Source: an uncultured bacterium (lineage in GTDB: Bacteria; JAGRBM01; JAHCIT01). Taken from it: DNA of 64,000 nt. This document shows, piece after piece, positions 6,084 through 54,150 of the stretch. The stretch lies in contig CAZUMS010000003.1 in the NCBI GenBank assembly GCA_964621525.1, forward strand, positions 37,129-101,128, given 5' to 3'. Below the pieces are notes generated by a model. The model was not told where the DNA came from. It ran no database searches and was given only the letters and a program-made list of their open reading frames with translations. Positions within the stretch are counted from its first letter, which is position 1. Each line of letters starts with the position of its first letter. The translations under genes and the position numbers were made by a program.

Positions 6084-7583
6084 TCAGCCGCGGCTTCCGT
6101 GGAGCGTATCGCCCACGTAGCACTCGATGCCGAGTTCCTTGAGGTCGAGACCCTCGACTTCCTCTTCCTCGGACACGCGGACGCCCATCACGGCTTTCAC
6201 CGCATACCAGACCACCAGGCTCGCCGGGAACGCATAGGCTCCGACAGCGACGATGCCGATGATCTGATTGATGAGCTGGCCGGCGCCGCCTCCGTAGAAG
6301 AGGCCGAGGCCGGGCTGGGCTTCTCCGCCGGCAAAGGCCGGAGCGGCGAACAGGCCCACGCAGAGCGTGCCCCAGATCCCGTTGGCGAGGTGGACCGAGA
6401 GCGCGCCGACCGGGTCGTCGATCTTCAGCTTGTCCCAGAACAGCACGCTGTAGAAGCAGAGGATGCCGCCGACCGCGCCGATCACGAACGCGCCGCCTGC
6501 CGTTACCCAGGCGCACGGGGCGGTGATCGCCACGAGGCCCGCGAGGCAGCCGTTCAGCGACATGCCAAGGTCAGGCTTGCCGAACGTGATCCAGGCGATA
6601 GCCGTCGCGGTCGCCATGCCTGCCACTGCGGCGATATTCGTCGTCATGGCGATGTGGGCGATGGCGCCGCCGTCCCAGGTCATGGTCGAGCCGGGGTTGA
6701 ACCCGAACCAGCCGAGCCACAGGATCAGCGTGCCGAGCACGACGAGCGGAATTGAGTGGGCCGGAATCGCGTTGACCTTGCCGTCGGCCGAGTACTTGCC
6801 GATACGCGGCCCGATCACGAGGATGCCGGCGAGACCCGCCCAGCCGCCCACCGAGTGGACGACCGTGGAGCCCGCGAAGTCCCAGAATCCCTTGCCGGCG
6901 AGCCAGCCGGCACCCCAGATCCACTTGCCGGGGACCGGGTAAACCAGTGCTGTCAGCAGGAATGCGAAGACAACGAAGGAGAGATACTTGTTCCGCTCGT
7001 CCACGCAGCCGGAGACGATCGTCGCGGCCGTGCCGGCGAAGGCGAGCTGGAAGAAGAACTTGCCTTCCAGCGCCACGTTCGCCCAGCCGAGGGCGCCGGT
7101 GTAAAGTTCTTCAGGACCGATAAATGGCGTGAAAGAGCCCAGGAAGCCGCTTCCCTCGCCGAACATGAGCGAGAACCCGATCACCCAGTAGGCGAGCGTC
7201 GCCGCGCCGAACACGACGAAGTTCTTGCCGAGGATCGTGGCCGCGTTCTTCTTGCGGCAGAAACCGCTCTCCACAAGCGCGAAACCGGCGTTCATGAAGA
7301 ACACCAGGAAGCCGGCGATCATCGTCCAGACCGTATCGGCCGAAAACTTGATCGCATCGGTGCGGGCCTTCAGTTCTTCAAGCTGCTTGCTCAGCTCTTC
7401 CGTCGAAGGACCGGCCGGGGCTGCCGCGGCAGCCGGTGCCGCTTCGGCGGGCGGAGCGGCCTCAGCCGGTGCGGCCGCTGCTTCGGCCGGCGGCGGCGTG
7501 TCCTGCGCCGTGACGAGGGACGGACGCCAGAGCGCCGCCCCCAGCAGCATCAGTGCGAGAATTACTGTGGATTTCTTCAACAT
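6084..7583 (-). CDS. amt: ammonium transporter (Amt/MEP family), paralog 1
   Basis: 499 aa; signal peptide plus Ala/Pro-rich linker, then the Amt core (DTVWTMIAGFLVFFMNAGFALVESG ... 11 TM). Confidence 0.9.
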   Translation of the reverse strand: MLKKSTVILALMLLGAALWRPSLVTAQDTPPPAEAAAAPAEAAPPAEAAPAAAAAPAGPSTEELSKQLEELKARTDAIKFSADTVWTMIAGFLVFFMNAGFALVESGFCRKKNAATILGKNFVVFGAATLAYWVIGFSLMFGEGSGFLGSFTPFIGPEELYTGALGWANVALEGKFFFQLAFAGTAATIVSGCVDERNKYLSFVVFAFLLTALVYPVPGKWIWGAGWLAGKGFWDFAGSTVVHSVGGWAGLAGILVIGPRIGKYSADGKVNAIPAHSIPLVVLGTLILWLGWFGFNPGSTMTWDGGAIAHIAMTTNIAAVAGMATATAIAWITFGKPDLGMSLNGCLAGLVAITAPCAWVTAGGAFVIGAVGGILCFYSVLFWDKLKIDDPVGALSVHLANGIWGTLCVGLFAAPAFAGGEAQPGLGLFYGGGAGQLINQIIGIVAVGAYAFPASLVVWYAVKAVMGVRVSEEEEVEGLDLKELGIECYVGDTLHGSRG

Positions 7584-8349: not shown

Positions 8350-10038
8350 TCAGCGGGCGTGCGGGGTCTCGGACGCCTTGTCCATCACGACACCCACATA
8401 CGCGGCGCAGCCCATTTCCGGGATATCAAGACCCTCAATCTCGGCTTCCACGGGTGTCCTGAGACCGACAGTCACATCGAGCAGCTTGAAGACCGCAAAA
8501 CCGATGGCGCCCACATAGACGAAGTTCGTGAGCACGCCGATCGACTGGGCGATGAACTGGCTCGCATCTCCGTAGAAGAGGCCCTTCACCGGACCGGCAA
8601 CGCCGTTCCAGCCATCGCCGTAGGAACCGTCGGCGAAAAGACCCAGGGCGAGGCAGCCCCAGGCGCCGTTCACGCCATGGACCGCCACCGCACCTACCGG
8701 GTCGTCGATCTTGAGGACGCGCTCGATGAAGAACACGGCCTCGACCACGATGATGCCGGAGACGAGCCCGATGATGCAGGAGGCCATGGAGTTCACGAAC
8801 GCACAGGGTGCCGTGATCGCCACAAGCCCGGCGAGCATACCGTTCGCCATCATGCTGGGATCCGGCTTACCCATCCGGAAAGCCCAGCAGTAGAGCGTGG
8901 CCGCGAGCGCGCCGGTCATGGATGCGAGCATCGTGTTCACGGCTACCACTGCCAGACGAAGATCCGTGCCAGCGAGTGTTGAACCGGGGTTAAACCCGAA
9001 CCAGCCGAAAGCGAGAATAAAGGTGCCGATGATTGCCATCGGAATGTTGTGGCCGGGGATCGGGTTCGGCGAGCCGTCCTTGTTGTATTTTCCGGCGCGG
9101 GGGCCAATCAGCCATCCGCCCACGAGCGCGAGCACGCCGCCCGTCATGTGCACGACCGAGGAGCCGGCGAAATCCACATGCCCGTGACCGAGGCCGTAAT
9201 ACTTGCCCAGCGTCGCCAGGAAGCCGCCGCCCCAGACCCAGCAGCCGTAGATCGGATAAATGATCGTGCCGACGGCGAGGCCATAGAGGAAGAACGACTT
9301 GTAGTTCCAGCGTTCGGCCATGGAACCGGTGGGAATCGTCGCCGTGGTGTCCATGAACACCATCTGGAAGAGGAACAGCGCGAAGATCGAGACATCGTAG
9401 ACGTCGGATCCGAGGAAGAAGCCCTTCGTACCGAACAGCACCCAGTCGTTACCGCCCACCTTGATCGAGAAGGCGGAGTTCAGCACATCCGTGCCGCCCA
9501 GCGTGCCCAGCGCCCCGAAGCCGCCGAACATGAAAGCGAAGCCGCACACGTAGAAACCGAGCATCCCGAGCGGATAGATCAGGAAGTTCATGGCCATTGT
9601 ATGCGACGCATTCTTGGCGCGGGTGAAGCCGGTCTCGACCATGGCGAATCCGGCCTGCATGAACATGACGAGGAAGCCGGCCAGCATGGTCCACACCATG
9701 TTGATCGAAACCTTGTTCTTGCCGACCTGGTTGGCGACGTCGCCCAGGGTCAACTTACCGGCTTCCGACTGAGGAACATCGGTCATGTTGCCCGTGGCGC
9801 CGCCACTGGGATCCGGCGCCCGCGGCGAGGCCGGCGCCTCGACCGTAATGCTCATCTCCACTGGCGCGGGCGGCGCTGCCGGCGGAGCGGGTGTGGCGGC
9901 GGCCTCTGCCGCCGGCGCAGAAGTCTCCGCCGGAGGTGGTACGGTTTCGTCGGCATTGGCCCAGTGGGGAACAATCAGTAGCGCGGCTGCGAACCAGACG
10001 ATCGCCGCAAAACTCATAATCTTTCTGGATTTACTCAT
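8350..10038 (-). CDS. amt: ammonium transporter (Amt/MEP family), paralog 2
   Basis: 562 aa; signal peptide MSKSRKIMSFAAIVWFAAALLIVPHWANA, Pro/Ala-rich linker, Amt core (NMVWTMLAGFLVMFMQAGFAMVETG). About 50% identity to paralog 1. Confidence 0.9.
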   Translation of the reverse strand: MSKSRKIMSFAAIVWFAAALLIVPHWANADETVPPPAETSAPAAEAAATPAPPAAPPAPVEMSITVEAPASPRAPDPSGGATGNMTDVPQSEAGKLTLGDVANQVGKNKVSINMVWTMLAGFLVMFMQAGFAMVETGFTRAKNASHTMAMNFLIYPLGMLGFYVCGFAFMFGGFGALGTLGGTDVLNSAFSIKVGGNDWVLFGTKGFFLGSDVYDVSIFALFLFQMVFMDTTATIPTGSMAERWNYKSFFLYGLAVGTIIYPIYGCWVWGGGFLATLGKYYGLGHGHVDFAGSSVVHMTGGVLALVGGWLIGPRAGKYNKDGSPNPIPGHNIPMAIIGTFILAFGWFGFNPGSTLAGTDLRLAVVAVNTMLASMTGALAATLYCWAFRMGKPDPSMMANGMLAGLVAITAPCAFVNSMASCIIGLVSGIIVVEAVFFIERVLKIDDPVGAVAVHGVNGAWGCLALGLFADGSYGDGWNGVAGPVKGLFYGDASQFIAQSIGVLTNFVYVGAIGFAVFKLLDVTVGLRTPVEAEIEGLDIPEMGCAAYVGVVMDKASETPHAR

Positions 10039-10248
10039 GATCGGTTTCCTGTCTCTCCATGAAATTCACTGCCGCCGTTTCACTTCATCCTGCGGGAGCC
10101 CGGCGCCGGAATCCGTCGTCGGCCCTTCTGGATGGAGCAGCCGACTCAAGCTCGTCGGCGGTTTCAGCAGTGCCGTTGTTGAGGCCTCAGGCAGACGGAC
10201 CGGTCCGGGTGGATCTGGCGGCACAGTCGTCTTTCCCGTCCGAGACGA

Positions 10249-10264
10249 AGCATCAGCTATGCCA
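10249..10264 (-). promoter_or_regulatory. sigma54 (RpoN) -24/-12 promoter for amt2
   Basis: Minus strand TGGCATAGCTGATGCT: TGGCAT-N5-ATGCT with GG/GC at canonical spacing; followed by a leader conserved with amt1. Confidence 0.55.
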
Positions 10265-10460
10265 TAAAAATGAACTAAAAATTTTAGTCTATTTCCGAGA
10301 TATATTCGGAAGAAATATCGGGAATAACGATGTCGAAATTTAATTCATAAGTATATGATATTATTTATATATTTTACCAATTACGGAGATAAATACAGCA
10401 CACCCGAAGGGACGTATTATCCTTCAAATAAATTGTACTAAAAATATGTGTTCATTCTTC
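10265..10460. promoter_or_regulatory. AT-rich island (~200 bp, roughly 25-30% GC) upstream of the amt2 sigma54 promoter
   Basis: Sequence aaaaatgaactaaaaattttagtctatttccgagatatattcgg...tatatgatattatttatatattttaccaatt in a ~67% GC genome; position fits an enhancer/IHF-bending region for a sigma54 promoter. Confidence 0.45.
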
Positions 10461-10967
10461 AAACACCGGTTGAGAACCGTGCGAGGATTTCCGTAATGCC
10501 TCAAAAATTGGCGATTCGAAGACCTGTCGCCCCATTTCTGGGCACATCTGTTCTTTCACCTCTGAATCCCGCTGCCGGAATGTCCAAAAACATGCTCTGT
10601 GGAAATCATTTTCTACCTTTTATTTCACATGGTTATAAAAGTCCTACGTATTCCGAAGCTCCCGGTGGAGTTCTTGGTTTCTGCCTTGCACATTGGGGAA
10701 ACGCTGAACCGGCCTGCCAGAGGATGGGGAACGTCCCGGTCGGGACCGGAAAGCCCGGTCCATACTGTTCTGTTAAGGACAGCTGGATCAGGAGAGCGGT
10801 CGGCAAGGTGGGACGGCGCCGGGTGAAAAACCGGCGCACCGGTGGATTCGGAACCCGTTAAACCCGGCACTCCAAAGAACAAGAAGCCGGTATCAGAGCC
10901 GTCCGGCGGGAGTGCGGAGGAAATCCGCCCCGCCCATGGCAACCCGGATTCCGGGTAGCTAGGTTAG

Positions 10968-11342
<375 letters not shown>

Positions 11343-12913: not shown

Positions 12914-13034
12914 TCGCCAGCGCCCCGAAGCGGCCTGCAAGGCGCCGATGCGCTCCTTTCCTCTGGGAAAGGGGCGCATCGCGCTTTTACGGGTCCCGTT
13001 CCACCCGCGCTCCCCGTCCGCTACCCTAGCCCTC

Positions 13035-14063
13035 ATGCCGAAGGTGTCCGTGCTGATTCCGGTCTACAACGGCGCGCCGTTTCTCGGGGACGCGCTGGAG
13101 AGCGTGCTCGCGCAGGAGGGCGCGCCGGATTTCGAGATCGTTACGGCCGACGACGGATCTGCCGATGCCACCCCGGCCCTGCTGGAGCGCTTCGTCCGCC
13201 GGGACGCCCGCATCCGGGCGCTTCGCCTTCCGCACGGGGGAATCGCGAAAACCCTTTCGGCAGGACTTGAGGCGTGCCGGGCTCCTTATGTCTGCCGCCT
13301 CGATGCCGACGACCTGATGCCGCCCGGGCGCCTCGCCGCGCAGACCGCCTTTCTGGAGACGAACCCCGGCGTTACCGCCGTTTCCGGTATGGTCGTCCAC
13401 GAACCCCACCCGGAGATTCCCTCGGACGGCATGGCAAACTACGTTGCCTGGATGAACCGCCAGAAGACCCACGAGGAGATGCTTGCCGCCATCTGGACCG
13501 ATTCGCCGGTCGCCCACCCGTCGGTGATGTTCCGGCGGGATGCGGTCCTTGAAGCGGGCGGCTACGCCAGTGTCCCGTGGCCCGAGGACACGGACCTGTG
13601 GTTCCGGCTGCTGCTCCGGGGCCGGCGGTTCGCCAAGCTCGACACCGGGGTCCTCTGCTGGCGGGATCACGGCAGCCGTCTGACCCGGACCGACAATGGC
13701 CATTACGGCCCCGCCGCGCAGGCGGCGATGAAGGCTCATTACCTGCCGAGGTTTTTCCCCCGCGCGGCCCGCCACGGCGTCACCGTCATCGGCGCCGGCC
13801 CGTTCGGAAAACGGCTCGCGAAATCCCTCGCCGCCGGCGGCGTGCGTGTGAACCGGTTTGTGGATGTGGACCCGCGCAAGATCGGCAGCAGCCGCCTCGG
13901 CATTCCCGTTTTGTCCGCCAGGGACCTGCGCCCGGACGACGGCGACCTGCTCGTATCCGCCGTTGGAACGCCCGGAGCGCGCGAGCTGATCCGGAGCGAA
14001 CTTGCAGGACTCGGAATCCCGGCTAGCCACGGAGGAGACACCCGTGTCGTCTTCTGCCACTGA
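13035..14063 (+). CDS. family 2 glycosyltransferase with C-terminal Rossmann-like (GxGxxG) extension
   Basis: MPKVSVLIPVYNGAPFLGDALESVLAQ...DDGSAD... GT2 (GT-A) N-domain with DxD-like CRLDADD; C-terminal VTVIGAGPFGKRLAKSLAAGGVRV. Confidence 0.75.
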   Translation: MPKVSVLIPVYNGAPFLGDALESVLAQEGAPDFEIVTADDGSADATPALLERFVRRDARIRALRLPHGGIAKTLSAGLEACRAPYVCRLDADDLMPPGRLAAQTAFLETNPGVTAVSGMVVHEPHPEIPSDGMANYVAWMNRQKTHEEMLAAIWTDSPVAHPSVMFRRDAVLEAGGYASVPWPEDTDLWFRLLLRGRRFAKLDTGVLCWRDHGSRLTRTDNGHYGPAAQAAMKAHYLPRFFPRAARHGVTVIGAGPFGKRLAKSLAAGGVRVNRFVDVDPRKIGSSRLGIPVLSARDLRPDDGDLLVSAVGTPGARELIRSELAGLGIPASHGGDTRVVFCH

Positions 14064-14565
14064 CACGAAGGGAACACGCCGGGTACTGGACCGCTGGATC
14101 GTCGTCGAGGCGGGCGGGTTCCAGTTCGCTTTCCCGCTGGAGGAACTGGACGCCGTGGTCGACATCCACTCGTCGAGAATCCGGCGCACCCAGGGACGCC
14201 GGCGGCCGGGGTTCCTGGGCAACGCCGACTGGGCCGGGATGGAGCGGGAGATCCGCCTGCTCGCCGAACAGCTTGGGCTCCCCGCGCGGGTGATGGAGAC
14301 CTATCCGGCGGTGGTCACGCGGCTCGAAGACCCCGCGACCGGCGACTTCGAGCCGGTGTTCTGGGCCGTGGAACGGGTGACAGGCTCCTATGACCGCGAC
14401 CTCGTGGTTCCTGAGCCTGTGCCGCCCGAATGGTGGACATTGAGCCCGGTCCCCTTCAAGGCCGTCTGGTGGCAGGGCAACCGGCCCGTGTGGGTACTGG
14501 GTTCGGCGGAGCTGATCGCCCGGTGGAAGGCTGTGGAAGCCGCCGGACCGGAGACGGCCGCATGA
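14002..14565 (+). CDS. CheW-like domain protein (divergent, Trp-rich)
   Basis: Weak CheW pattern: RWIVVEAGGFQFAFPLEELDAVVDI...PGFLGNADWAGMEREIRLLAEQLGLP ... PVFWAVERVTGSYD..VPEPVPPE ... VWVLGSAELI. TTG start per track overlaps the GT2 end; start uncertain. Confidence 0.4.
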   Translation: MQDSESRLATEETPVSSSATDTKGTRRVLDRWIVVEAGGFQFAFPLEELDAVVDIHSSRIRRTQGRRRPGFLGNADWAGMEREIRLLAEQLGLPARVMETYPAVVTRLEDPATGDFEPVFWAVERVTGSYDRDLVVPEPVPPEWWTLSPVPFKAVWWQGNRPVWVLGSAELIARWKAVEAAGPETAA

Positions 14566-14987
14566 GCCTCTACAGCAATCCCGGACAGGCGATCGAAACC
14601 CTCACCGTGCAGGTGATGACAGGCAGCGTGCGGTGGGTGTTTCCGTTGTCGGGCGTAAAATCGTTCGTCGAGATCCAGGCGGTCTATCCGCTCCCGCCGC
14701 CAGCCGCCTGGGACGGTCTCGTCCGGATCGACGGAGCGGCCTACTGTATCAGGATATTGAGGGAGGCGGGTGGCGACCCCGTGCCCGCAGTTCCTTTCAA
14801 GGGCTGCCTGATCGAGCGCGGACGGATCCCGGTGGTTCTCGGCTTCGAGAAGTTCGTGACCGGGCGGGGCCCGGAGGAGTTCGAGCCGGTGCCCGAAGGC
14901 AGCGGGCCGTTTCCCGGCGTCACGGGCCGGACCGTCCTCCCCGGTGGACCCTGCTACCATATCGACACCGGTAAATTGATCGTTTAG
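14562..14987 (+). CDS. CheW-like domain protein
   Basis: From MSLYSNPGQAIETLTVQVMTGSVRWVFPLSGVKSFVEIQAVYPLPPPAAWDGLVRIDGAAYCIRIL...PVVLGFEKFV..EEFEPVPE; aligns with both CheW subdomains; ATGA overlap with the upstream gene. Confidence 0.5.
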   Translation: MSLYSNPGQAIETLTVQVMTGSVRWVFPLSGVKSFVEIQAVYPLPPPAAWDGLVRIDGAAYCIRILREAGGDPVPAVPFKGCLIERGRIPVVLGFEKFVTGRGPEEFEPVPEGSGPFPGVTGRTVLPGGPCYHIDTGKLIV

Positions 14988-15093
14988 AGTCCCCTCACTG
15001 ACGTCCCATGAGGTCCCTGCACCCGGAGGCCGCGAGGGTTTTTAGGCCCCCCAAAGCCCTGGTTGCGGGAACCGCCCGGAACAGGTGTAACGC

Positions 15094-16359
15094 ATGCCGA
15101 AGAAAATCCTGGTCGCCGACGATTCCGTCACCATCCAGCGGGCCGTCCAGATCACCTTTTCAAACCAGCCGGATTTCACCGTCGAGTTCGCCAGGGACGG
15201 GGACGAGGCGCTCGCGAAGTTCAAGGCATCGAAACCCGATGCCGTCGTCGCCGACGTCGTGATGCCGAAGAAGAACGGTTACGACGTCGCCGAGGCGCTC
15301 AAGGGCCAGGGCGTGCCGGTGGTGCTGCTCAAGGTCAACTCCGAACCCTACAACGATGCCCGTGCGGCCGCCGCCGGAGTTGTCGAGGCGGTGCCGAAGC
15401 CCTTCGAAACGACGGCCCTCGTAGACGCCGTGAAGAACGCCATCGCCAAAGGCGCGGGCAAGGGCGCACCCGCCCCTGCCGCCGCGAAGCCCGCTGCTGC
15501 CCCGGCGGCGCCCAAACCGGTGGCTCCGGCACCTGCGGCGGCGAAGCCTGCGCCCGCCAAGGCGCCGGTTTCCCTCGAAGAAGAGACCGATTCGTGGGAT
15601 CTCGGCGAACCCGAAGCAGCCCCCGCCCCCGTGGCGGCCAAGGCTCCGGCTCCCGCGAAACCCGCCGCTCCTGTTCTCAAAGCTCCGCCTCCCTCGCCGC
15701 CCAAGCCGGCGCCAAAAGCGGTCGAGGAAGACTCGTGGGATCTTGGCGAACCGGAGGCTCCGGCAGCAGCCGCATCCCTCGAAGCCGAAGTCGAAGTCTC
15801 CGTCGAGACGGCGGCGGAGTCCCCCGCCTGGGATCTCGGCGAGACGGAAGCCGTTCCGGCTGAGACCGAAGCCGAAGTCGAGGTCGAACTGGCGGCCAGC
15901 GGCGGCGACATGTGGGATCTAGGCGAAACTGAAGCCGCCCCGGCCGTTCCCCCCGCGTCGATTGCGCCGTCCTTCGGACGCCAGGCTCCGGCGGCCGAGG
16001 TGGAAGTCGAACTGGCCTCGGACGGCGGCGATACCTGGGATCTCGGCGAGCCAGAAGCTGCTCCGCCCGCTCCCGCGACGCCACAGAAAATTCCGGTGAC
16101 TCCGCCCCCCGCGCCGCCGCCAGCTGCCCGTGCGGCTCCGGTTGCTCCGGCGGCAAAATCTGCCCCCGCCGCCCCCGCCACCGCCGTTCAGGTCAATGCC
16201 GCCCAGATCGAAGCGGCCGTGCGACAGGCGATCGAGCTGGCGCTCAAGCCCATGATCGACGAATCCGTGAAGCGGATCTCGAAGGCGATTACCGACGAGT
16301 TCCCGAAGATCGCCGAACGGCTGATCCAGAACGAGATCGACCGGCTCAAGGAAGGCTGA
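15094..16359 (+). CDS. response regulator with Pro/Ala-rich repeat linker and conserved C-terminal helix (RomR-like architecture)
   Basis: N-terminal receiver (ILVADDS...DAVVADVVMPKKNGYD...LLKVNSEP); ~250-aa A/P/E-rich linker with 5 copies of xWDLGE(P/T)EA(A/V)P; C-terminal AVRQAIELALKPMIDESVKRISKAITDEFPKIAERLIQNEIDRLKEG. Confidence 0.6.
   Translation: MPKKILVADDSVTIQRAVQITFSNQPDFTVEFARDGDEALAKFKASKPDAVVADVVMPKKNGYDVAEALKGQGVPVVLLKVNSEPYNDARAAAAGVVEAVPKPFETTALVDAVKNAIAKGAGKGAPAPAAAKPAAAPAAPKPVAPAPAAAKPAPAKAPVSLEEETDSWDLGEPEAAPAPVAAKAPAPAKPAAPVLKAPPPSPPKPAPKAVEEDSWDLGEPEAPAAAASLEAEVEVSVETAAESPAWDLGETEAVPAETEAEVEVELAASGGDMWDLGETEAAPAVPPASIAPSFGRQAPAAEVEVELASDGGDTWDLGEPEAAPPAPATPQKIPVTPPPAPPPAARAAPVAPAAKSAPAAPATAVQVNAAQIEAAVRQAIELALKPMIDESVKRISKAITDEFPKIAERLIQNEIDRLKEG
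15590..16060 (+). repeat. five dispersed ~33-nt direct repeats (tgggatctcggcgaaccngaagc) encoding the WDLGE motifs
   Basis: gattcgtgggatctcggcgaacccgaagcagcc / gactcgtgggatcttggcgaaccggaggctccg / gcctgggatctcggcgagacggaagccgttccg / atgtgggatctaggcgaaactgaagccgccccg / acctgggatctcggcgagccagaagctgctccg. Confidence 0.7.
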
Positions 16360-24902: not shown

Positions 24903-25322
24903 GAGAGGGGTACCACCTTGCGCGGAGACGCCATCTCTGAAGGCTGGGGCTTCCGCGAAAGCGCCCAAGCTATAGTCCCCCTCCCCGGCGGTCAAGATCG
25001 GATCCGGGCGCGGACAACGCCGGTTCCGCCCGAACCGGACCCGTGCTCTTTCACGGGAAAACGGCGCGATCTGCATACCACCTTCAGCCGATTTCCCGAT
25101 TAGTTACCGGGACTTGCAACGCACGCCCGGTTCCGGGTATTCTTCAAGCCGACTCGCAGTTCCAGATTGTTTTCTGTCCCACCTGCGAAACGAGGAGGCC
25201 GTGCGTGAATTCGCCCGGCCGGTCCGGCTGCATCCCGAATGCTGCGGACCCTCTGTAGCGGCCACGCAGGTCTCCCCGGCATACGCAGTCTTTCCGTTCT
25301 GGATGTACACAGGAGTTTTCCC

Positions 25323-28300
25323 GTGCCGAACCGCCGTCTTTCGATTCTGGCCCTCACCCTCGTTGCCGGCCTGCTGGGTTTTTCCCCGGCCCATGCCCTG
25401 AATGTCGAATGGGAGAACGCCTTCGGCAGCCGGGGCGAAGGTTCCGGCCAGTTCAGCACGCCCCTTCACGCCGCCGTCGACGAGAAGGGTAACTATCACG
25501 TCACCGATTCCCGGAACGGCCGGGTCCAGGTGTTCGATCCGAAGGGACTCTATCTGCGTTCCTACGGGCATCTCTCCTCGCCCCGGCTGTCGCGGCCCTC
25601 GGGCATCGCCATCAGCCCGGTCACGAAGCTGATCTTCGTCACCGACACGGACCAGCATCTTCTGTTTGTCTTCAACCCGGACGGAACGCTCAAGGAAACC
25701 CTTGGCGGCAGCGGTTCGGAGCCTGGCTACCTGAGCAGCCCGCAGGGCGTCTCCGTGGGCCGGGGCGGCCGGGTCTACGTCGCAGATACCGGCAACGGCC
25801 GCATTTCCGTGTTCGGCGAGGACGGCCTGTTCCTCGGCGTCTTCGGCCCCGAGACCCGGAACACGGTCGCCACGCTCAAGAAGCCCGTGGATGTCGCCAC
25901 AGACATCGAGGAAACGCTCTACGTCGCCGACGCGGGCCTGAGGGAAGTGGTCATTTTCAGCCGCGAGTGGCGGCGTCTCACCAAGATCGGGCGCGAGCGG
26001 GGGTTCGACACCCCCGCAGCGGTCGCCGCCGATCGCTACGGTAGCGTCGCCATGCTGGACGAGGGCAGCCAGCGGATCTTCCATTTCGCCGCCGGCCAGA
26101 AGCCGCTTCAGACCTTCGGTTCCGAGGGCACCGCGCAGGCCCAGTTCCAGGACGCAGGCGGCCTCCTGTTCGACGAAGTGAACAACCGGTTCGTGGTCGT
26201 GGACGGCGGCAACCAGCGGGTCCAGACCTTCCGGCACCGGAGCCGTGAGGAACAGCAGGAGCTGCCGCCTTACCAGCCCGGTTTCACGCTCGAATACGTT
26301 CGTTCGATCTCCGCCCGCGCTGATGATCTGGATGCGGCTGACGGACGGCTTTATGCCTTGAACCGCGAGGCGAAAGAAATCCGCATCTATTCGGCCGACG
26401 GAGCCGAGCAGGGCCGCATCCCGCTCAAGTGGGGTTCCAAGGACGATACCGACGATCCTTCGCGGATCCTGTTCGCCAGCGACACGGTCTATGTGACCGA
26501 CTCGGGCGCAGGCGACGTGAAGATGTTCGACCCCAAGGGAGTATTCCGCGGACGCATGGGCTCCAAGGGATCGGAACCGGGCAAGCTCCGGGATCCAAAG
26601 GGCATGTTTGCCGATGAACGGTTCATCTATGTGGTCGACCGGGGCAACGACCGGATCTCGCTGTTCAGTCCGAACGGCGGCTTCGTGACCGTGAATCAGG
26701 CGAAAGGATCGGGCGAACTGGATGAGCCCTGGGACGTCGTTACCGACCGTGAAGGGAATCTCTACGTGGCCGATGAAGGCCGCAATCAGGTCATGAAATA
26801 TTCACGAAACAGCCAGTTCCTCAATGCCCTCTGCAAGGAGGGTTACGGGCCGGGGTTTCTCCAAGGCCCCGTCTCCATCGAGATCGACAAGATGGAAGTG
26901 CTCTATGTGCTGGACGAGAACGGAGTTACGGTCGCCGACCGGGAGTGCAAGCCCATCGCCCGCTTCGGAGCCGGAAAGGGCAAGGGCAAGGGCCGCTTCC
27001 AGCTGCCCGGCGGTCTTGCCGTGGATGATTCCCGCGGCGTGCAGATCTACTTTTCGGACCCCGCCAACAATGTGATTCATGTGGTCGCCTACAAGCAGAC
27101 GCCTACGGCGGCCGTGAATTTCAAGGCGGCGCCCGGCAAGACCGGCGCCACCTTCAGCTGGGACGGCCCGCAGGAAGCATTCCGCGAAACCTGGGTGCTC
27201 GAAGGCGCCGTGAAGCCCGACGGCCCGTTCTCGAAGGTCGTCGAAGCGAAGGCATCGCCCGTCACCGTGAACTACCCCGTGGCCGGGGACCCGGTGTATT
27301 TCCGGGTCGTGGCGAGGAGTTTCTCGGGCGTCGAAAGTGCGCCCTCCCTCGTCGTTACGGACGTCTACCGCCAGGCGCAGCTCTATTTCGCGGCCCGGCA
27401 GTACGACGCGGCCCTGACCAAGGCGGACGAATATCTCTCGGGCGTTCCCGATCAGCCGGACGCCCTGCTGCTCAAGGCCCGTACGCTGACAGCCCTCACG
27501 CAGCCGCAACGGGCCGCGGAAATCTACCGTAAGCTGGCCGAAGTGGCGGGTTACGAGGAAACCGCCCTCGAGGAACTGGGCCGCATCCATGCCGCCGAGG
27601 GCAAGTACCGCGAGGCGACCGAGGCCGCGACGAGACTGCTCACAAAGAACGACAAGTCGGTGGCGGGATACAAGCTGCTGGCCGAGGTCGCCCTTGCCTC
27701 GGGCTCGCTCGACGATTCCATCTCACAGTCGGCGCGGGCGCTGGCCATCGCCCCCGACGACACGGGTGCCATGGATCTGCAGGCGAAGGCCTATATCAAG
27801 AAGGGTCTCGGCGACGAGGCGATCCGCATCTATTCAGCCGCGATCAAGATCAACAAGACCGATCCACGCCTCTACGCCGGCATCTCGGCGGCGCTTCTCG
27901 CCACAAACCGGCCCAGCCAGGCGGTTCCCTACCTCCAGTGGGTCGTGAAGACGCAGCCCAAGGAAGTTCCCGCCCGCGCCATGCTCGCCCGGGCGCTTCT
28001 GGCCTCCAAACAGCCAACCCCCGCCGCCGAACAGGCGGAGGAGATCAAGAAACTCGCGCCGGATTCGCCAGAAGGGTACGAACTCGCAGGCTTCGCGGCC
28101 CGTGATCTCGGCAATGCCGGAAAGGCGATCTTCGAGCTCGAGCAGGCGGCCCGCAAGGACCCGCAGAACCCCCGCTACCAGATCCAGCTCGGACTGCTCT
28201 ATCAGCAGAACAACCGTCCGGGAGACGCCAGCCAGGCGTTCCAGAAGGCTATCGCACTCACGCCGAATACGGCCAAGGAACGCCGCGTGCTGGCGGACCA

Positions 28301-29171
28301 GCTCTTCGAAGCCAAGCTCTACCCGCTGGCGGTCATCGAATACGACAATGTCTTCAAGCTGGATCCCAAACAGACGGATGCTCTCGTTCAGGGAGCCGAG
28401 TGCTATTTCCTCCTGAACCGGACCGAGCCGGCCCGCAATCTGTATTTAAAGGCCATCGACGCCAATCCGAACGCGTCGGTGGCACATTTCCGCCTCGGCA
28501 GCATGCATATGACGGCCAAGGAGTTCGACAAGGCGGTTCCCCGGCTCATGCTCGCCGCCCGGATCGACCCCCGCCAACCGCTCTACCCAGCGCTGCTCGG
28601 CGATTCGTTCTCGGCCCTGGGCGACTACCGCTCGGCGTCCGAATCCTACCAGCTTGCGACGCAGCTCGAACCCACGAATGCCCAGTACCAGGCGAAGTTC
28701 CGCGAGGCGAAAGGCAAATACGACGCCGCTCCGTATGAACTCACCGGCCCGCTGGAAGTCGTGGACCTCACGGTGCCCGATCTCGAGCAGTCGTCGTTCG
28801 AGTCCTACCGGCAGAACGGCGCCCTCACGGTGAAGTTCGCCAACAACGCGGCGAAGCCCGTCTACCGGATCCGGCTCAAGTTCAGCGTCGTGGGGATGCT
28901 CCAGTATCCGTTCGAGGACCAGATCTCGTCCGTCGAAACGAAGGAAACGAAATCCCTCGTCGTGAAGCCCCGCTTCAACCAGGCGGCCATGGATCTTCCC
29001 GCCGACACCTTCGGGATTGCTGCATTCGAGATCGAATATTTCTTCCAGAAGAAACAGTACAACTACACGCTCTACCGGTCGGTGCTCATGAAAGCCGACC
29101 TCGCAGCCAGGAACACCCCTGCCCCCATGCCGGCAGTTACGCCGCCGCCTCCCGGCTATCCGGGGCGGTAG
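25323..29171 (+). CDS. secreted NHL-repeat beta-propeller / TPR-repeat protein (~1280 aa)
   Basis: GTG start with SD aggag; signal peptide NRRLSILALTLVAGLLGFSPAHA; at least 10 NHL-like units (GxGxGQFxxPxGvAvDxxGnvYVaDxxNxRvqvF); central Fn3-like segment; C-terminal ~15 TPR units. Confidence 0.75.
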   Translation: MPNRRLSILALTLVAGLLGFSPAHALNVEWENAFGSRGEGSGQFSTPLHAAVDEKGNYHVTDSRNGRVQVFDPKGLYLRSYGHLSSPRLSRPSGIAISPVTKLIFVTDTDQHLLFVFNPDGTLKETLGGSGSEPGYLSSPQGVSVGRGGRVYVADTGNGRISVFGEDGLFLGVFGPETRNTVATLKKPVDVATDIEETLYVADAGLREVVIFSREWRRLTKIGRERGFDTPAAVAADRYGSVAMLDEGSQRIFHFAAGQKPLQTFGSEGTAQAQFQDAGGLLFDEVNNRFVVVDGGNQRVQTFRHRSREEQQELPPYQPGFTLEYVRSISARADDLDAADGRLYALNREAKEIRIYSADGAEQGRIPLKWGSKDDTDDPSRILFASDTVYVTDSGAGDVKMFDPKGVFRGRMGSKGSEPGKLRDPKGMFADERFIYVVDRGNDRISLFSPNGGFVTVNQAKGSGELDEPWDVVTDREGNLYVADEGRNQVMKYSRNSQFLNALCKEGYGPGFLQGPVSIEIDKMEVLYVLDENGVTVADRECKPIARFGAGKGKGKGRFQLPGGLAVDDSRGVQIYFSDPANNVIHVVAYKQTPTAAVNFKAAPGKTGATFSWDGPQEAFRETWVLEGAVKPDGPFSKVVEAKASPVTVNYPVAGDPVYFRVVARSFSGVESAPSLVVTDVYRQAQLYFAARQYDAALTKADEYLSGVPDQPDALLLKARTLTALTQPQRAAEIYRKLAEVAGYEETALEELGRIHAAEGKYREATEAATRLLTKNDKSVAGYKLLAEVALASGSLDDSISQSARALAIAPDDTGAMDLQAKAYIKKGLGDEAIRIYSAAIKINKTDPRLYAGISAALLATNRPSQAVPYLQWVVKTQPKEVPARAMLARALLASKQPTPAAEQAEEIKKLAPDSPEGYELAGFAARDLGNAGKAIFELEQAARKDPQNPRYQIQLGLLYQQNNRPGDASQAFQKAIALTPNTAKERRVLADQLFEAKLYPLAVIEYDNVFKLDPKQTDALVQGAECYFLLNRTEPARNLYLKAIDANPNASVAHFRLGSMHMTAKEFDKAVPRLMLAARIDPRQPLYPALLGDSFSALGDYRSASESYQLATQLEPTNAQYQAKFREAKGKYDAAPYELTGPLEVVDLTVPDLEQSSFESYRQNGALTVKFANNAAKPVYRIRLKFSVVGMLQYPFEDQISSVETKETKSLVVKPRFNQAAMDLPADTFGIAAFEIEYFFQKKQYNYTLYRSVLMKADLAARNTPAPMPAVTPPPPGYPGR

Positions 29172-49364: not shown

Positions 49365-51452
49365 TTGTTCGAGCGAATCCTGGAAATCCTGCAGGCCCAG
49401 CCCCCCGAGGTCCTGATTGCCATCATGGTAGGCATCCTGCTCGCCTGCGGGCTGGGACTCCCGATGCCCGAGGACATCGTCCTCGTAACGACGGGCTACC
49501 TTGCCTACAACGGACTGCTCGATTTCCGGTGGGAGGTTGTCCCTGACGGCTATCACGAAGGATTGTTGATCGGCATAGCCGCGACGCTGCTGGGTGTTCT
49601 GGGCGGGGACCTGATCATTTTCTCCCTCGGCAGCCGGTACGGGACCCACATCCTCGACTTCAGGCCGGTCAAAAAGATCGCCACCCGGGAGCGGATCGAG
49701 GCCGCTGAATACTACTTCGAAAAATACGGGGCCAGGTTCATTTTCGTCGGCCGCTTCATGGCCGGAGTCCGGGCGCCGATGTTCCTGACAGCAGGCATGC
49801 TCAAGGTTCCGATGCGGACGTTTATCCTTTACGACGGAATCTCGGCACTCTTCAGCGTCCCGCTTCTCGTCTGGGTGGGATTCCACTTCGGCGAGGACAT
49901 CAACGATGCCTTCCGGGCAGCCAAGAAGGCGCAGAACACGATCCTCTACCTGTTCGCTGCCGTGGGACTCTATTTCCTCGTCCGCTATATCCTCCGGGTC
50001 ACGGGCGTCCTCAGGGAGAAACTGATCGTCGATCCGGCTGCGGAGAAATTCGAGCAGCAGCACCCCTCGGACGGCGAAAAACCCTTCATTCTGACCCCCG
50101 GTTTCGGGAAAGGCGCAAACCACATGAGCATTTTCAAGGCATACGACATCCGGGGCGTCGTTCCCGGCGAGCTGGACGAACGGCTCGCCCGGCGTATCGG
50201 GATGGCTGTGGTGGATTTTCTCAAGGTGGACCGGCTCTGCGTCTGCCGCGACGTGCGAGCAACGGGGGATGCGATCTTCGAAGCCTTCGCCGCGGGCTGC
50301 CGCCACCGGGGAGCGGATGTCTACGATATCGGCCGGGGGACGACCCCGCTGCTCAATTTCATGGTCGGCCGGCACGCCTTCCCCGCCGGAGTCATGATTA
50401 CCGCCAGCCATAATCCGCCCCAGTACAACGGCTTCAAGATCTGCCGCTCGGGCGCGGTGCCGGTTTATGATGCCGAAATCCGCACCATCGGCGAGATGGC
50501 CCTCGAACCGGCCGAACCCTCTGCAGCACCGGCCGCCGGGAAGATCGTACCGTTCCAGGACCGGGAGCCTTACTACGCGGCGATCCGGGCAAAGATCCGG
50601 AGCGGCGGCCGCCGGCTGAAAGTCGTCGTCGACATGTCGAATGGTGCAGCAACGACAGTGACACCCGCTCTCCTGCCGCTCCTTCCCCACGACATCGTCG
50701 TCATCAACGGCGAGCCGGACGGCACGTTCCCGAACCACGAACCCGATCCGCTCAAGGAAGAGAACCTCGAGCAGTGCCGCCGGAAAGTGATCGCCGAAAA
50801 GGCCGACCTTGGTGCCGTGTTCGATGGCGATGCGGACCGGCTGGTGTTCCTGGACGAGACGGGCCGGACCGTGACGGGCGATATCGCGACGCTCCTCATG
50901 GCGCTGAACCTGATCGGCGGCCGCGCGGGAGAAACCGTCCTCTACGACGTCCGTTCCTCGTGGACCGTCCGGGAGGAACTGCTCAAAGTGAAGGCTAAAC
51001 CCGACGTCTGCCGCGTGGGCCACGCCTTCATCAAGATGGCCATGCGCGAACGTGACGCCCTGTGCGCCGGAGAGCTGTCCGGGCACTACTACTTCCGGGA
51101 CAATTTCTACGCCGAAAATACCGACCTCGCCCTGCTCCTCATCCTGAACCAGCTCGCCTTCTCGGACGAGCCGCTCAGCCGGATTGCGGGCCGCTATCGC
51201 CGCTACCACGCCTCGGGGGAGATCAATTCGGAAGTGGCCGACAAAGCGGCTATGATCGCCGGCATCAAGGAGCGTTACGGGGCCAGGGGCCGGGTATCCG
51301 AAGTGGACGGTCTCACGGTCGAATTCGACGACTGGTGGTTCAACCTGAGGCCGTCGAACACCGAGCCGCTCCTGCGCCTGAACGTCGAGGCGAAGACGGC
51401 GGACCGGCTCAGGGAAAAGACGGACGAGCTCCTGAAGACCATCCGGGCTTGA
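49365..51452 (+). CDS. fusion ORF: N-terminal DedA/SNARE-associated (TVP38/TMEM64) membrane domain plus C-terminal phosphomannomutase/phosphoglucomutase
   Basis: Residues 1-215: DedA signature ACGLGLPMPEDIVLVTTGYLAYNG, FIFVGRFMAGVRAPMFLTAG. From residue 254 (nt 50124): MSIFKAYDIRGVVPGEL, active-site TASHNPPQYNGFK, DGDADR. No in-frame stop between the two parts. Confidence 0.7.
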   Translation: MFERILEILQAQPPEVLIAIMVGILLACGLGLPMPEDIVLVTTGYLAYNGLLDFRWEVVPDGYHEGLLIGIAATLLGVLGGDLIIFSLGSRYGTHILDFRPVKKIATRERIEAAEYYFEKYGARFIFVGRFMAGVRAPMFLTAGMLKVPMRTFILYDGISALFSVPLLVWVGFHFGEDINDAFRAAKKAQNTILYLFAAVGLYFLVRYILRVTGVLREKLIVDPAAEKFEQQHPSDGEKPFILTPGFGKGANHMSIFKAYDIRGVVPGELDERLARRIGMAVVDFLKVDRLCVCRDVRATGDAIFEAFAAGCRHRGADVYDIGRGTTPLLNFMVGRHAFPAGVMITASHNPPQYNGFKICRSGAVPVYDAEIRTIGEMALEPAEPSAAPAAGKIVPFQDREPYYAAIRAKIRSGGRRLKVVVDMSNGAATTVTPALLPLLPHDIVVINGEPDGTFPNHEPDPLKEENLEQCRRKVIAEKADLGAVFDGDADRLVFLDETGRTVTGDIATLLMALNLIGGRAGETVLYDVRSSWTVREELLKVKAKPDVCRVGHAFIKMAMRERDALCAGELSGHYYFRDNFYAENTDLALLLILNQLAFSDEPLSRIAGRYRRYHASGEINSEVADKAAMIAGIKERYGARGRVSEVDGLTVEFDDWWFNLRPSNTEPLLRLNVEAKTADRLREKTDELLKTIRA

Positions 51453-51498: not shown

Positions 51499-54150
51499 AT
51501 GAACGGGCAGCTGGAAACGCTGACAGTCGAGGAGATGCCGAAGTCGGCCACGAGGATATTCCTCGAAGGCACGGCCATCGCCGCCTTCTTTGCCCTGATG
51601 ACCGTCGTGGTCGGCGTCGTCTCGATGTTCCTGACCGGCGGGATGTACGACCCCGAAGCCCGCCAGTTCTTCGGCGGCTTCATGAGCTCGGACCGCTTCG
51701 GCCCTCTCGGCATTTTCGTATTCATCCTTGTGAACGTCTGGACCTGGTGGTTCTGGCGGATCATGGGCTGCGTCCGGGAGTTCAAAGCGCTTCCGCCGGA
51801 AGAATGGAAAGCGAGTCCCGAGCGCCTGACCGAGCTGTTCCGCCAGATTCACGACATCCCTTACCGGGCGGGGTTTTCCAGTTTCCTCATGTGGCTGGTG
51901 GGCGGGGTGATCGCCATCTGGTTTTTCCGGGACCTGCCGGGATTCATGCGGTGGCTTGTGCCGCTGATCGCCGTAAGTGCGGGGCTCTCGATCAACCTGC
52001 CGCAGATGTACACGCTGAAGTTCCTGGTGCGGCCTGTCGAGAACGAGATCCGCCGCCTGAATCCCGACATCAGCATCGCCGCGCTCGAACGGCGGAACAG
52101 CATCGGGCGCAAGCTCCGGGCGGGACTGATCGGCCTGCTGGCGCTTACACTGGGCGTATCGTTCCTGATCTCTTTCCTGCTCGTGGAACGCTACCGTCTG
52201 ATCGACCGCAAGGACCGGCTGACGAACCAGATGGTTCTCTACCAGGACTGGCTGTCCCGCATGAACATTTCCGATGCAACGCCGGAAGAAATGGACAGGT
52301 GGATGGGTCCCCTGAAGGAGTTCAGGACCAGTTCTCACGGAGGCGCGATTCTCTATGATCTGGATACCAGCCGCTTCCTCGTGAACGTGCCCGGAGCGCC
52401 GGAAACGAAGGAAACCATTGATCTCATGCTGGCATCCGACCAGCAGTTCACCGACGACTACATCAACGGATTCACCTACCGGTCACTGCCCCCGGACCTG
52501 TTCGACCGGTACGGCCTGAGCGGCCGCTACCGACTTGTTCTCGCGGAACATTACGTCCTCGGATCGGGCGGATTCCTGAGAAACTCGCTCCTCGTTTACG
52601 GCATATTCTTCGCCATGGCCCTGCTCATCTCCTACTACCTGAGCCGGGACATCATCGTCCCCCTGCGGGAGCTCCTCCGGTACACGAAGCGCATGGGCCA
52701 GGGCCGCCTGAACCGCCGCCGCCCGTTCGTCGCCGGCGACGAGCTGGGAGAACTTGCCGAAGAGACCGCCCAGACGGCCTCGAATATCGCCGCCATCGTG
52801 ACCGATATCCGCACCGTCGGCGGTTCGGTGAACGATGCAGCCCGTGCCGTCGCGGGCCGCAGCGTCTCGCTCTCTCAGGCAAGCCGTGACCAGCTCCATC
52901 AGGCCGAGAACACGGCCCGTTCCATCGACCTGCTGGCCAGCCGTCTCGAAGGCAGCAAGCAGGAGATCGACCGGCTGGAAGAAGCCGTTTCCGCCAGTTC
53001 GTCGGCAGCCATCGAGATGCATGCGAGCGCCCAGCAGGTGAACCAGACCACCACCCAGCTCGCCGTCGAGACGGAGAATATCAAGAACGCTTCCGGGAAG
53101 ATGGTCGAGGCGACCGAGCATGTGGCGAACCGCCTCGCCGACCTCGAGTCGTACACCGACCAGACGGTTTCGGCTGTCCAGCTCATCGAGGACCGCATCC
53201 GCGCGCTCCGCAAGGACGCAAGCCTGTCGGAACAGCTATCGAGCGACGCGCTGGCCAACAGCCAGGTCGGGCGCGACGCACTCGCCGCTACCGTCCAGTC
53301 CATCGCCTCGGGCCGTCAGCTCGTCATCGAAACAGCCCAGATCATCGTCTCGCTGCGGAACCGGAACCGCGCCATCAACGAGATCATCGAGACCATCCGT
53401 TCCGTGGCAAGCCGTACGACACTGCTCTCTCTGAACGCCTCCATCCTGGCGGCACAGGCCGGAGAACACGGGGCATCGTTCCAGGTGGTGGCCGAAGAGA
53501 TCCGCCAGCTCGCCACCGGTACCAACACCAAGGCCCGTGAGATCGCCGAACTCATCGAGACGATCCAGGTGGAGACCGAAAATGCGGCGCAGGCCATCGA
53601 GCAGGTGACTGTGCAGGCGGACGAGAATGTCTCGCTTGCCGAAGGCACTTCCCGGGTCCTCGATGAAATCACCCGCAAGGCGGAGAGTTCCCTTTCGGTG
53701 GTGGAGCGAACCACCCGCGCCATCGAGGACCAGAGCCGGTCGGCGGGGGAGATTACCGAGATCGTGAAACAGCTCGGCGAACTGGTCCGGGAGTTTTCCC
53801 AGCTCGGTGAATCCCAGCGGACCATGGGCGGCCGCATCGCCGCCGGCATCGAGCAGGTCCGCGAACACGTACTCCGGGTCAGCCGGGCAAGTTCCGAACA
53901 GGTGCGCGCCTCCGGGCAGGTGACGGATGGTGTCGAAACCGTGACCCACACTCTCCAGAACGTCCTCCGCACCCTGAACGAGGAAATCGGTTCCACGGGT
54001 GATATCCGTAAATCTTCCGGCCTGGTCCGTGACACGGCGACAAGCTCGTCCCACCAGAGCGAGGAACTGGTCCGAGTATCCCGTGAGCTGGAACGGTTCG
54101 CCGAGCTGCTCCAGAAGGATGTGGACCGGTTCCGGATCGAAGACTCCTGA
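51499..54150 (+). CDS. methyl-accepting chemotaxis protein
   Basis: 883 aa; N-terminal multi-TM sensor region, HAMP, long MCP signalling domain with conserved tip TLLSLNASILAAQAGEHGASFQVVAEEIRQLA. Confidence 0.9.
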   Translation: MNGQLETLTVEEMPKSATRIFLEGTAIAAFFALMTVVVGVVSMFLTGGMYDPEARQFFGGFMSSDRFGPLGIFVFILVNVWTWWFWRIMGCVREFKALPPEEWKASPERLTELFRQIHDIPYRAGFSSFLMWLVGGVIAIWFFRDLPGFMRWLVPLIAVSAGLSINLPQMYTLKFLVRPVENEIRRLNPDISIAALERRNSIGRKLRAGLIGLLALTLGVSFLISFLLVERYRLIDRKDRLTNQMVLYQDWLSRMNISDATPEEMDRWMGPLKEFRTSSHGGAILYDLDTSRFLVNVPGAPETKETIDLMLASDQQFTDDYINGFTYRSLPPDLFDRYGLSGRYRLVLAEHYVLGSGGFLRNSLLVYGIFFAMALLISYYLSRDIIVPLRELLRYTKRMGQGRLNRRRPFVAGDELGELAEETAQTASNIAAIVTDIRTVGGSVNDAARAVAGRSVSLSQASRDQLHQAENTARSIDLLASRLEGSKQEIDRLEEAVSASSSAAIEMHASAQQVNQTTTQLAVETENIKNASGKMVEATEHVANRLADLESYTDQTVSAVQLIEDRIRALRKDASLSEQLSSDALANSQVGRDALAATVQSIASGRQLVIETAQIIVSLRNRNRAINEIIETIRSVASRTTLLSLNASILAAQAGEHGASFQVVAEEIRQLATGTNTKAREIAELIETIQVETENAAQAIEQVTVQADENVSLAEGTSRVLDEITRKAESSLSVVERTTRAIEDQSRSAGEITEIVKQLGELVREFSQLGESQRTMGGRIAAGIEQVREHVLRVSRASSEQVRASGQVTDGVETVTHTLQNVLRTLNEEIGSTGDIRKSSGLVRDTATSSSHQSEELVRVSRELERFAELLQKDVDRFRIEDS

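Follow-up and report, generated by a model that had tools for sequence, protein, structure and literature searches.

What kind of system is encoded when two CheW-like genes stand between a glycosyltransferase gene and the gene for a response regulator, with no chemotaxis kinase gene beside them? This question was raised by a locus in a 64,000-nucleotide (nt) stretch of DNA from an uncultured bacterium (contig CAZUMS010000003.1, positions 37,129 to 101,128), hereafter called the window, in whose coordinates positions are given. A preliminary description had reported four consecutive plus-strand open reading frames (ORFs), and all four were present. They encode a family 2 glycosyltransferase (GT2, 13035–14063, 342 aa), a Trp-rich divergent CheW-like protein (sP1, 14044–14565, 173 aa, GTG start), a divergent CheW-fold protein (sP2, 14562–14987, 141 aa), and a RomR-like response regulator (RR, 15094–16359, 421 aa). 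RomR serves at the cell pole as the central scaffold of the polarity switch based on the GTPase MglA. On balance, we lean towards reading the locus as a clade-specific RomR polarity module, composed of a split double-CheW adaptor and a clade-specific GT2.

The RR begins with a receiver (REC) domain (15094–15447; PF00072, E 1.3e-18), continues with a Pro/Ala-rich acidic, motif-bearing linker (15448–16194), and closes with a conserved helix, probably a divergent RomR-C, that ends in SKAITDEFPKIAERLIQNEIDRLKEG (16195–16359), all on the plus strand. As read from the sequence, the receiver retains D9/D10, the phospho-acceptor position D54, and K102. In a profile search of 5.8 billion proteins, the nearest relatives of the RR were RomR-type REC-linker-RomR-C proteins, 40–50% identical over REC; the search returned one further full-length relative (P0008), and then dozens of REC-linker-tail proteins. 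The matches share a receiver, a Pro/Ala/acidic linker of 150–450 residues, and a tail of the form ...IEK(I/V)(A/V)WEV(V/I)P(E/D)LAE.(I/L)I.EEI..L, and the Trp motif of RomR-C, W[ED]xxP, was present in 48 of the 74. Receivers in the PDB scored only ~50 bits against the RR. We also built a hidden Markov model (HMM) from 48 canonical RomR-C tails and searched it against 2183 ORFs. Its matches were RR C-termini only, with no unrelated ORF better than E 1. The tail of the window RR gave a weak match over only the second half of the helix (E 0.0085, 12.9 bits), and the copy of a related lineage, L036, matched over most of the helix (E 0.0024). A resemblance of the RR tail to PopZ, considered at first, was discarded in favour of this more specific match.

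In RomR, the helix formed by residues 371–420 binds MglC, W394 being essential; E390, K391, and E402 are conserved, and the helix is kinked near residue 396 (PMC12719032, bioRxiv 2024.02.20.581209). The tail of the RomR-like proteins that bear the Trp motif fits the published residues E390, K391, W394, and E402 and the kink exactly. When the RR tail was aligned to RomR on the Pro kink and the AERLI motif, K391, P398, and E402 were kept, Thr stood in the place of W394, and Ser in that of E390. By the same alignment on P398 and AERLI, the MglC-binding Trp was absent in all five lineages of the clade. This loss is not unique to the clade, because a second group of RomR-like proteins (P0023, P0038, and P0042), with a tail of the form ...VSxIAERLVREEIxR, has lost the W394 equivalent too and carries Ser there. 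Thus, the RR is a divergent member of the RomR family, in which a receiver that can be phosphorylated precedes a disordered linker rich in Pro and a helix resembling RomR-C. The RomR architecture proposed for it in the preliminary description was supported by the profile matches, by the RomR-C HMM, and by the gene order described below.

The same description had guessed that both small proteins were CheW-like, and this proved correct: sP1 and sP2 are separate proteins that, although strongly diverged, have the CheW fold. Both show the two intertwined beta-barrel subdomains that define the fold of CheW and of the P5 domain of CheA, and the predicted structure of sP2 is a confident fold. In Pfam, the window sP1 matched CheW alone, at 15.2 bits (E 0.02), below the gathering threshold of PF01584 (23.5 bits). 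CheW was likewise the only Pfam match of all five sP1 family members scanned (best E 6.8e-5), and no rival family appeared. The window sP2 had no match to PF01584, and one of four members of its family matched Pfam CheW (E 0.004). A Roadblock/LC7 identity of the small proteins was rejected, as there was no Pfam signal for it and the fold was that of CheW. Profile searches of PDB sequences with sP1 and sP2 retrieved no CheW and only chance matches (E >0.2). Comparisons by hhalign were non-significant for sP1 against sP2, for both against a three-sequence CheW profile, and for both against a double-CheW protein encoded on the metagenome contig L043.

Motif alignment, statistically not significant, indicated that the equivalents of Gly57 and Gly63 are kept in both small proteins. 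In motif and hhalign matches that were also non-significant, CheW Arg62 (E. coli numbering, LRG motif) was replaced by Ala64 in sP1 and by Asp57 in sP2, where relatives have Glu. An invariant basic, Arg-rich loop, SSRIRRTQGRRRPG, occupies the place in sP1 where CheW usually has an IPxAP segment. The small proteins had both been called Trp-rich; this holds for sP1 (9 W, 5.2%), of which eight of the nine Trp are invariant across homologues, and not for sP2 (2 W, 1.4%). Homologues were very rare, with three to four clusters among the 5.8 billion proteins and one credible representative among 1.84 billion. An exhaustive HMMER search of the latter with sP2 gave no further credible relatives, and a metagenome scan with the sP1 profile returned one JGI contig, already known. 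The family is therefore restricted to one small clade.

Within this clade, the order GT2-sP1-sP2-RR was intact in five lineages (the window, L006, L001, L008/L011, and L036), so that CheW-fold genes lay upstream of the RR gene in all of them. The gene 3' of RR, by contrast, changed three times, being valS, an FMO-like gene, or a convergent gene. In L001 and L036, RR is followed by valS-birA-coaX-TPR. In the window and L008, the valS neighbour has been lost, and RR still stands beside sP2. The canonical RomR-like genes of other phyla are followed by valS-nadC(-birA-coaX) (L013, L038, L041, and L043), and because the valS-birA-coaX order is common to both, it supports the orthology of RR to RomR. 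Incidentally, we noticed that a romR-valS-nadC-birA-coaX housekeeping block occurs in several phyla (L013, L037, L038, L041, L043, and the P0011 contig); it should be a useful positional marker for RomR orthologues.

The gene order of Myxococcus xanthus provided a precedent. There, the order is MXAN4463 (GGDEF regulator)-MXAN4462-romR-MXAN4460 (Val-tRNA synthetase), and a figure legend states, from unpublished work, that MXAN4462 "contains two CheW domains" and is needed for fruiting (Leonardy 2007, PMC2034494). No mention of MXAN4462 was found in the other papers of the literature searched. The preliminary description had held that no such arrangement had been described, a statement that must be withdrawn, since a CheW-domain gene directly 5' of romR-valS was published for M. 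xanthus. A second case came from the metagenome contig L043. There, a gene whose product has two CheW stretches (Pfam E 7.5e-18) is separated by 95 nt from the canonical romR-like gene downstream of it, and valS-nadC-birA-coaX-TPR come next. Thus, sP1 and sP2 occupy the slot of the single two-CheW-domain gene found upstream of romR-valS in M. xanthus and L043. CheW-domain genes make up a very small fraction of any genome; that they recur directly 5' of romR in at least two to three independent settings is therefore an argument for a connection in function.

A relation to MglA/RomR systems, also suggested earlier, was supported by the presence of an MglA homologue in the clade. Its gene is located 8 kb downstream of the RR gene in L036, and the product matches the MglA of T. 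thermophilus (E 2e-66) and that of M. xanthus (7e-64); MglA was not found in the 64-kb window. The homologue (L036:11568–12605) carries a Pro/Ala-rich C-terminal extension of ~150 residues. A 356-aa protein without any Pfam match is encoded 28 nt before it (L036:10470–11540), and no Roadblock/MglB gene was seen beside it.

The linker of the RR differs from what is usual in the family. Like that of RomR proteins in general, it is Pro-rich and unstructured, with 49 Pro and 70 Ala among 242 residues and an isoelectric point of 4.2; its conserved short motifs are unusual. Five copies of a WDLGE(P/T)EA motif (15595–15609, 15736–15750, 15829–15843, 15913–15927, and 16036–16050, plus strand) hold all five Trp of the RR. 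Relatives with no more than ~57% identity in their sP genes keep the number and order of these motifs, and the copies are distinguished from each other by synonymous codon differences. The linker also bears EVEVEL repeats and an invariant polyproline motif, QKIPVTPPPAPP (16084–16119, plus strand). The clade thus shows the MglC-binding Trp lost alongside gained Trp-acidic and polyproline motifs. The RomR linker alone has been reported to localise to the poles, and linkers are lineage-specific (Keilberg et al.). As a side observation, Trp-acidic short motifs were seen in other RomR-like linkers (P0056, P0068, P0041, P0020, and P0010), for example EEIWGDL, DEDIWES, and EDDLWGAFELEEE. Such motifs may be a general, overlooked feature of RomR-like linkers that are otherwise unconserved.

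From these observations we infer a CheW-RomR partnership and a possible mechanism. The 4-nt overlap of their genes suggests that sP1 and sP2 are probably made together. They would associate with one another in the manner of CheW and CheA-P5, and a heterodimer is the simplest model because CheW and P5 domains pair through their subdomains. The pair would then constitute a split double-CheW adaptor for RomR, linking it either to a receptor or kinase input encoded elsewhere or to a polar landmark. The five Trp-acidic motifs and the polyproline motif of the linker might serve as multivalent docking sites, for which the likeliest partner would be the Trp-rich, Arg-loop-bearing sP1/sP2 pair. What leads us to propose this docking is the combination of Trp loss and motif gain in RR with the Arg loop of sP1 and its invariant Trp cluster on an SH3-like barrel. 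As in Myxococcus, the localisation of RomR would be switched by phosphorylation, here at D54. GT2, if co-expressed with the adaptor pair, could provide a polar output through local glycan synthesis or could merely share the operon.

We also considered a bolder proposal, namely that the CheW fold has here taken on a new role, the recognition of short linear motifs. The sP1/sP2 heterodimer would bind WDLGE and/or the polyproline motif, make up for the lost contact of RomR-C with MglC, and form a multivalent polar scaffold, independent of a kinase, by which a soluble glycosyltransferase is positioned as well. We hold this to be quite improbable. If it were true, RomR of Myxococcus would have a direct partner, so far missed, in the two-CheW-domain protein encoded next to it.

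Several observations weigh against a RomR module with a CheW adaptor. First, of the nine other RomR-like loci examined, eight have unrelated genes and no CheW gene upstream (L012/L015, L013/L014, L020, L037, L038, L040, L041, and L042), L043 being the sole exception. Second, glnA too is always found upstream of the four-gene set, and since it is equally constant, gene-order conservation in so narrow a clade is weak evidence when taken alone. Third, sP1 and sP2 have no sequence similarity to the L043 double-CheW protein or to each other, which leaves common descent with MXAN4462 unproven. Last, the RR tail matches RomR-C only weakly (12.9 bits) and has no equivalent of W394, and the RR gene has its own gap and possible promoter.

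This last point bears on how the genes are coupled, for which gene starts had to be revised. The preliminary description placed the start of GT2 at an upstream ATG, 12948, which remains an alternative and gives a 371-aa ORF; homologues begin at the equivalent of ATG 13035 (MPKVSVLIPV...). It also gave a 62-nt overlap of GT2 and sP1 (14002–14063). The sP1 ORF opens at TTG 14002, and a GGAGGAG box together with the gene calls of all relatives favours GTG 14044. With this most likely start, the overlap is 20 nt (14044–14063). The sP1/sP2 overlap (14562–14565) was confirmed, the sP2 start lying within the sP1 stop (ATGA, 4 nt). In contrast to the claim that all four genes were translationally coupled, RR is not, because a gap separates it from sP2, of 106 nt in the window (range 102–112 nt). 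A consensus scan gave a candidate promoter of the sigma70 type, TCGACA-17-TAGAGT, located where sP2 ends and 5' of RR (14962–14990, plus strand). Its TTTAGAGT is kept in the five lineages, but it overlaps conserved coding sequence and is a weak feature. Translational coupling thus appears, from the gene layout, to be confined to GT2, sP1, and sP2.

A possibility was, then, that GT2-sP1-sP2 forms a self-contained operon, in which the CheW-fold pair scaffolds or regulates the glycosyltransferase or shares a pathway with it, and that adjacency to romR reflects gene order inherited within a narrow clade. The restriction of coupling to these three genes and the separation of RR by a gap and a promoter-like site are in line with it, as are the anchoring of romR by valS-birA-coaX across phyla with variable upstream genes and the equal conservation of glnA upstream. 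Yet CheW-domain genes directly 5' of romR in M. xanthus and L043 would be unlikely by chance, RR stays with sP2 where valS has been lost (window and L008), and the GT2 and sP1 genes of L036 do not overlap. We therefore regard a self-contained operon as unlikely.

The glycosyltransferase passed the GT-A threshold with PF00535 (E 5.6e-28, 98.4 bits against a cutoff of 23.3), it has DAD (DxD) and DDGS motifs, and its closest sequence relatives in the PDB belong to the GT2 family, chondroitin synthase (E 8e-18) among them. Its C-terminal part (aa ~275–350 in the numbering of the 371-aa ORF from 12948) looks Rossmann-like, with a GxGxxG motif, IGAGPFG, and gave sub-threshold matches only, at aa 277–355, to CoA_binding (E 0.0016) and to the N-terminal region of NeuD (E 5e-7). 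GT2 is apparently a soluble enzyme of the GT-A type that carries a NeuD-N-like Rossmann domain in addition. Operon structure is the one feature that appears to tie it to the module, and the gene overlap, gone in L036, offers a weak hint of coupling to polysaccharide synthesis.

Another possibility was that a chemoreceptor array, with CheA and methyl-accepting chemotaxis proteins (MCPs) encoded elsewhere, uses sP1 and sP2 for coupling and provides a Frz-like input to RomR. Both small proteins do have the CheW fold, the Frz system acts through RomR in Myxococcus, and CheW proteins that are divergent or have several domains, although rare, have been described. The window also contains an orphan MCP (HAMP + MCPsignal, 51499–54150), its only one, 35 kb from the locus, whose gene is flanked by a mutase gene and feoB and is not accompanied by che genes. 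What speaks against array coupling is the replacement of Arg62 in both small proteins (in a non-significant alignment), the failure of either window copy to reach the Pfam CheW threshold, and the restriction of the family to one small clade. In addition, no che genes were found in the 64-kb window or in any related contig. CheA, CheB, and CheR were not found, nor was a canonical CheW, in ~45 scanned ORFs of the window; the term "CheA-less" applies to the 64-kb window alone. Taking both sides into account, we doubt that sP1 and sP2 serve such an array.

Finally, chance ORFs or decaying pseudogenes might be suspected in DNA of 66–68% GC in which many long spurious ORFs overlap the region, but this is refuted by conserved gene overlaps, a confident sP2 model, ~60 invariant columns among small-protein homologues only 52–58% identical, and, against a relative 84–88% identical, ratios of non-synonymous to synonymous substitution of 0.12 (sP1), 0.14 (sP2), and 0.18 (GT2). 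For RR, the ratio was ~0.1 in REC and 0.02–0.03 in the C-terminal 50 codons. The genes of the locus are real and under purifying selection.

Other features of the window were recorded in passing. A conserved non-coding spacer of ~965 nt (10039–11003), with an AT-rich centre and no Rfam match, separates the divergent genes amtB and glnB (P-II). It carries sigma54-type -24/-12 boxes at 10248–10264 (minus strand, towards amtB) and 10675–10690 (plus strand, towards glnB-glnA), both kept in L001 and L006. The ammonium transporter encoded at 8350–10038 (minus strand) has a Pro/Ala-rich N-terminal extension of ~70 residues after a signal-like segment, and a second amtB lies at 6084–7583 (minus strand). 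In one ORF (49365–51452), a VTT/DedA membrane domain (aa 35–172) is followed in the same frame by all four domains of a phosphogluco/phosphoglucosamine mutase (aa 256–689). The 1310-aa product of 25239–29171 contains both NHL beta-propeller repeats and a long array of TPRs. No match was obtained when the window was scanned for Rfam families and tRNAs.

How chemosensory input reaches RomR and which polar receiver its linker meets are still open questions in the field. The recurrence of CheW beside romR, in M. xanthus, in an unrelated metagenome contig, and as a split pair here, makes CheW-fold proteins candidates for direct partnership with RomR. The clade further illustrates that a CheW fold kept under selection can diverge to the point where its window copies fall below the Pfam threshold and one representative cluster stands among 1.84 billion proteins, and that RomR can drop its MglC-binding Trp while acquiring conserved linker motifs.

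CheW-fold proteins with roles beyond the standard bridge between receptor and kinase are known, among them FrzB of M. xanthus, ParP of Vibrio, WspB/WspD, DifC, and CheV. FrzB stabilises arrays, ParP anchors them at the pole, CheV joins CheW to a receiver, and the Wsp and Dif pathways, which control exopolysaccharide, use paired CheWs. All of these are known to act in systems with CheA and MCPs in the same cluster, and none is known to be paired with RomR or with a GT2 gene. Compared with CheW and CheA-P5 (PF01584), the small proteins share the two-subdomain beta-barrel and, in the first half, a recognisable Gly-x5-Gly and Pro-rich pattern. Unlike them, the window sP1 and sP2 score below the Pfam gathering level and have Arg62 replaced. 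A further difference of sP1 is its Arg-rich loop, together with eight invariant Trp, and no CheA, MCP, CheR, or CheB is encoded nearby.

The comparison with M. xanthus is closer. In contrast to M. xanthus RomR (MXAN_4461), the RR has Thr for W394 and Ser for E390, and its linker bears five WDLGE motifs and the invariant polyproline motif. The CheW function is here distributed over two overlapping genes too diverged to align with known CheW, the gene 5' of the CheW part encodes GT2 instead of a GGDEF regulator, and the window copy has no valS neighbour. Nevertheless, both proteins start with a receiver that has a phospho-acceptor Asp, continue with a long, disordered linker rich in Pro, and share a short conserved helix at the C-terminus that is kinked at a Pro and has an ...AE(R/T)(L/I)I..EI..L tail; their lengths are close (421 aa for the RR and 420 aa for RomR). 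In both loci, CheW-domain coding lies directly upstream; valS lies directly downstream in M. xanthus and in relatives within the clade, one contig of which encodes an MglA homologue. What is new here is thus a variant of the RomR locus, and it highlights an unstudied association of CheW with RomR.

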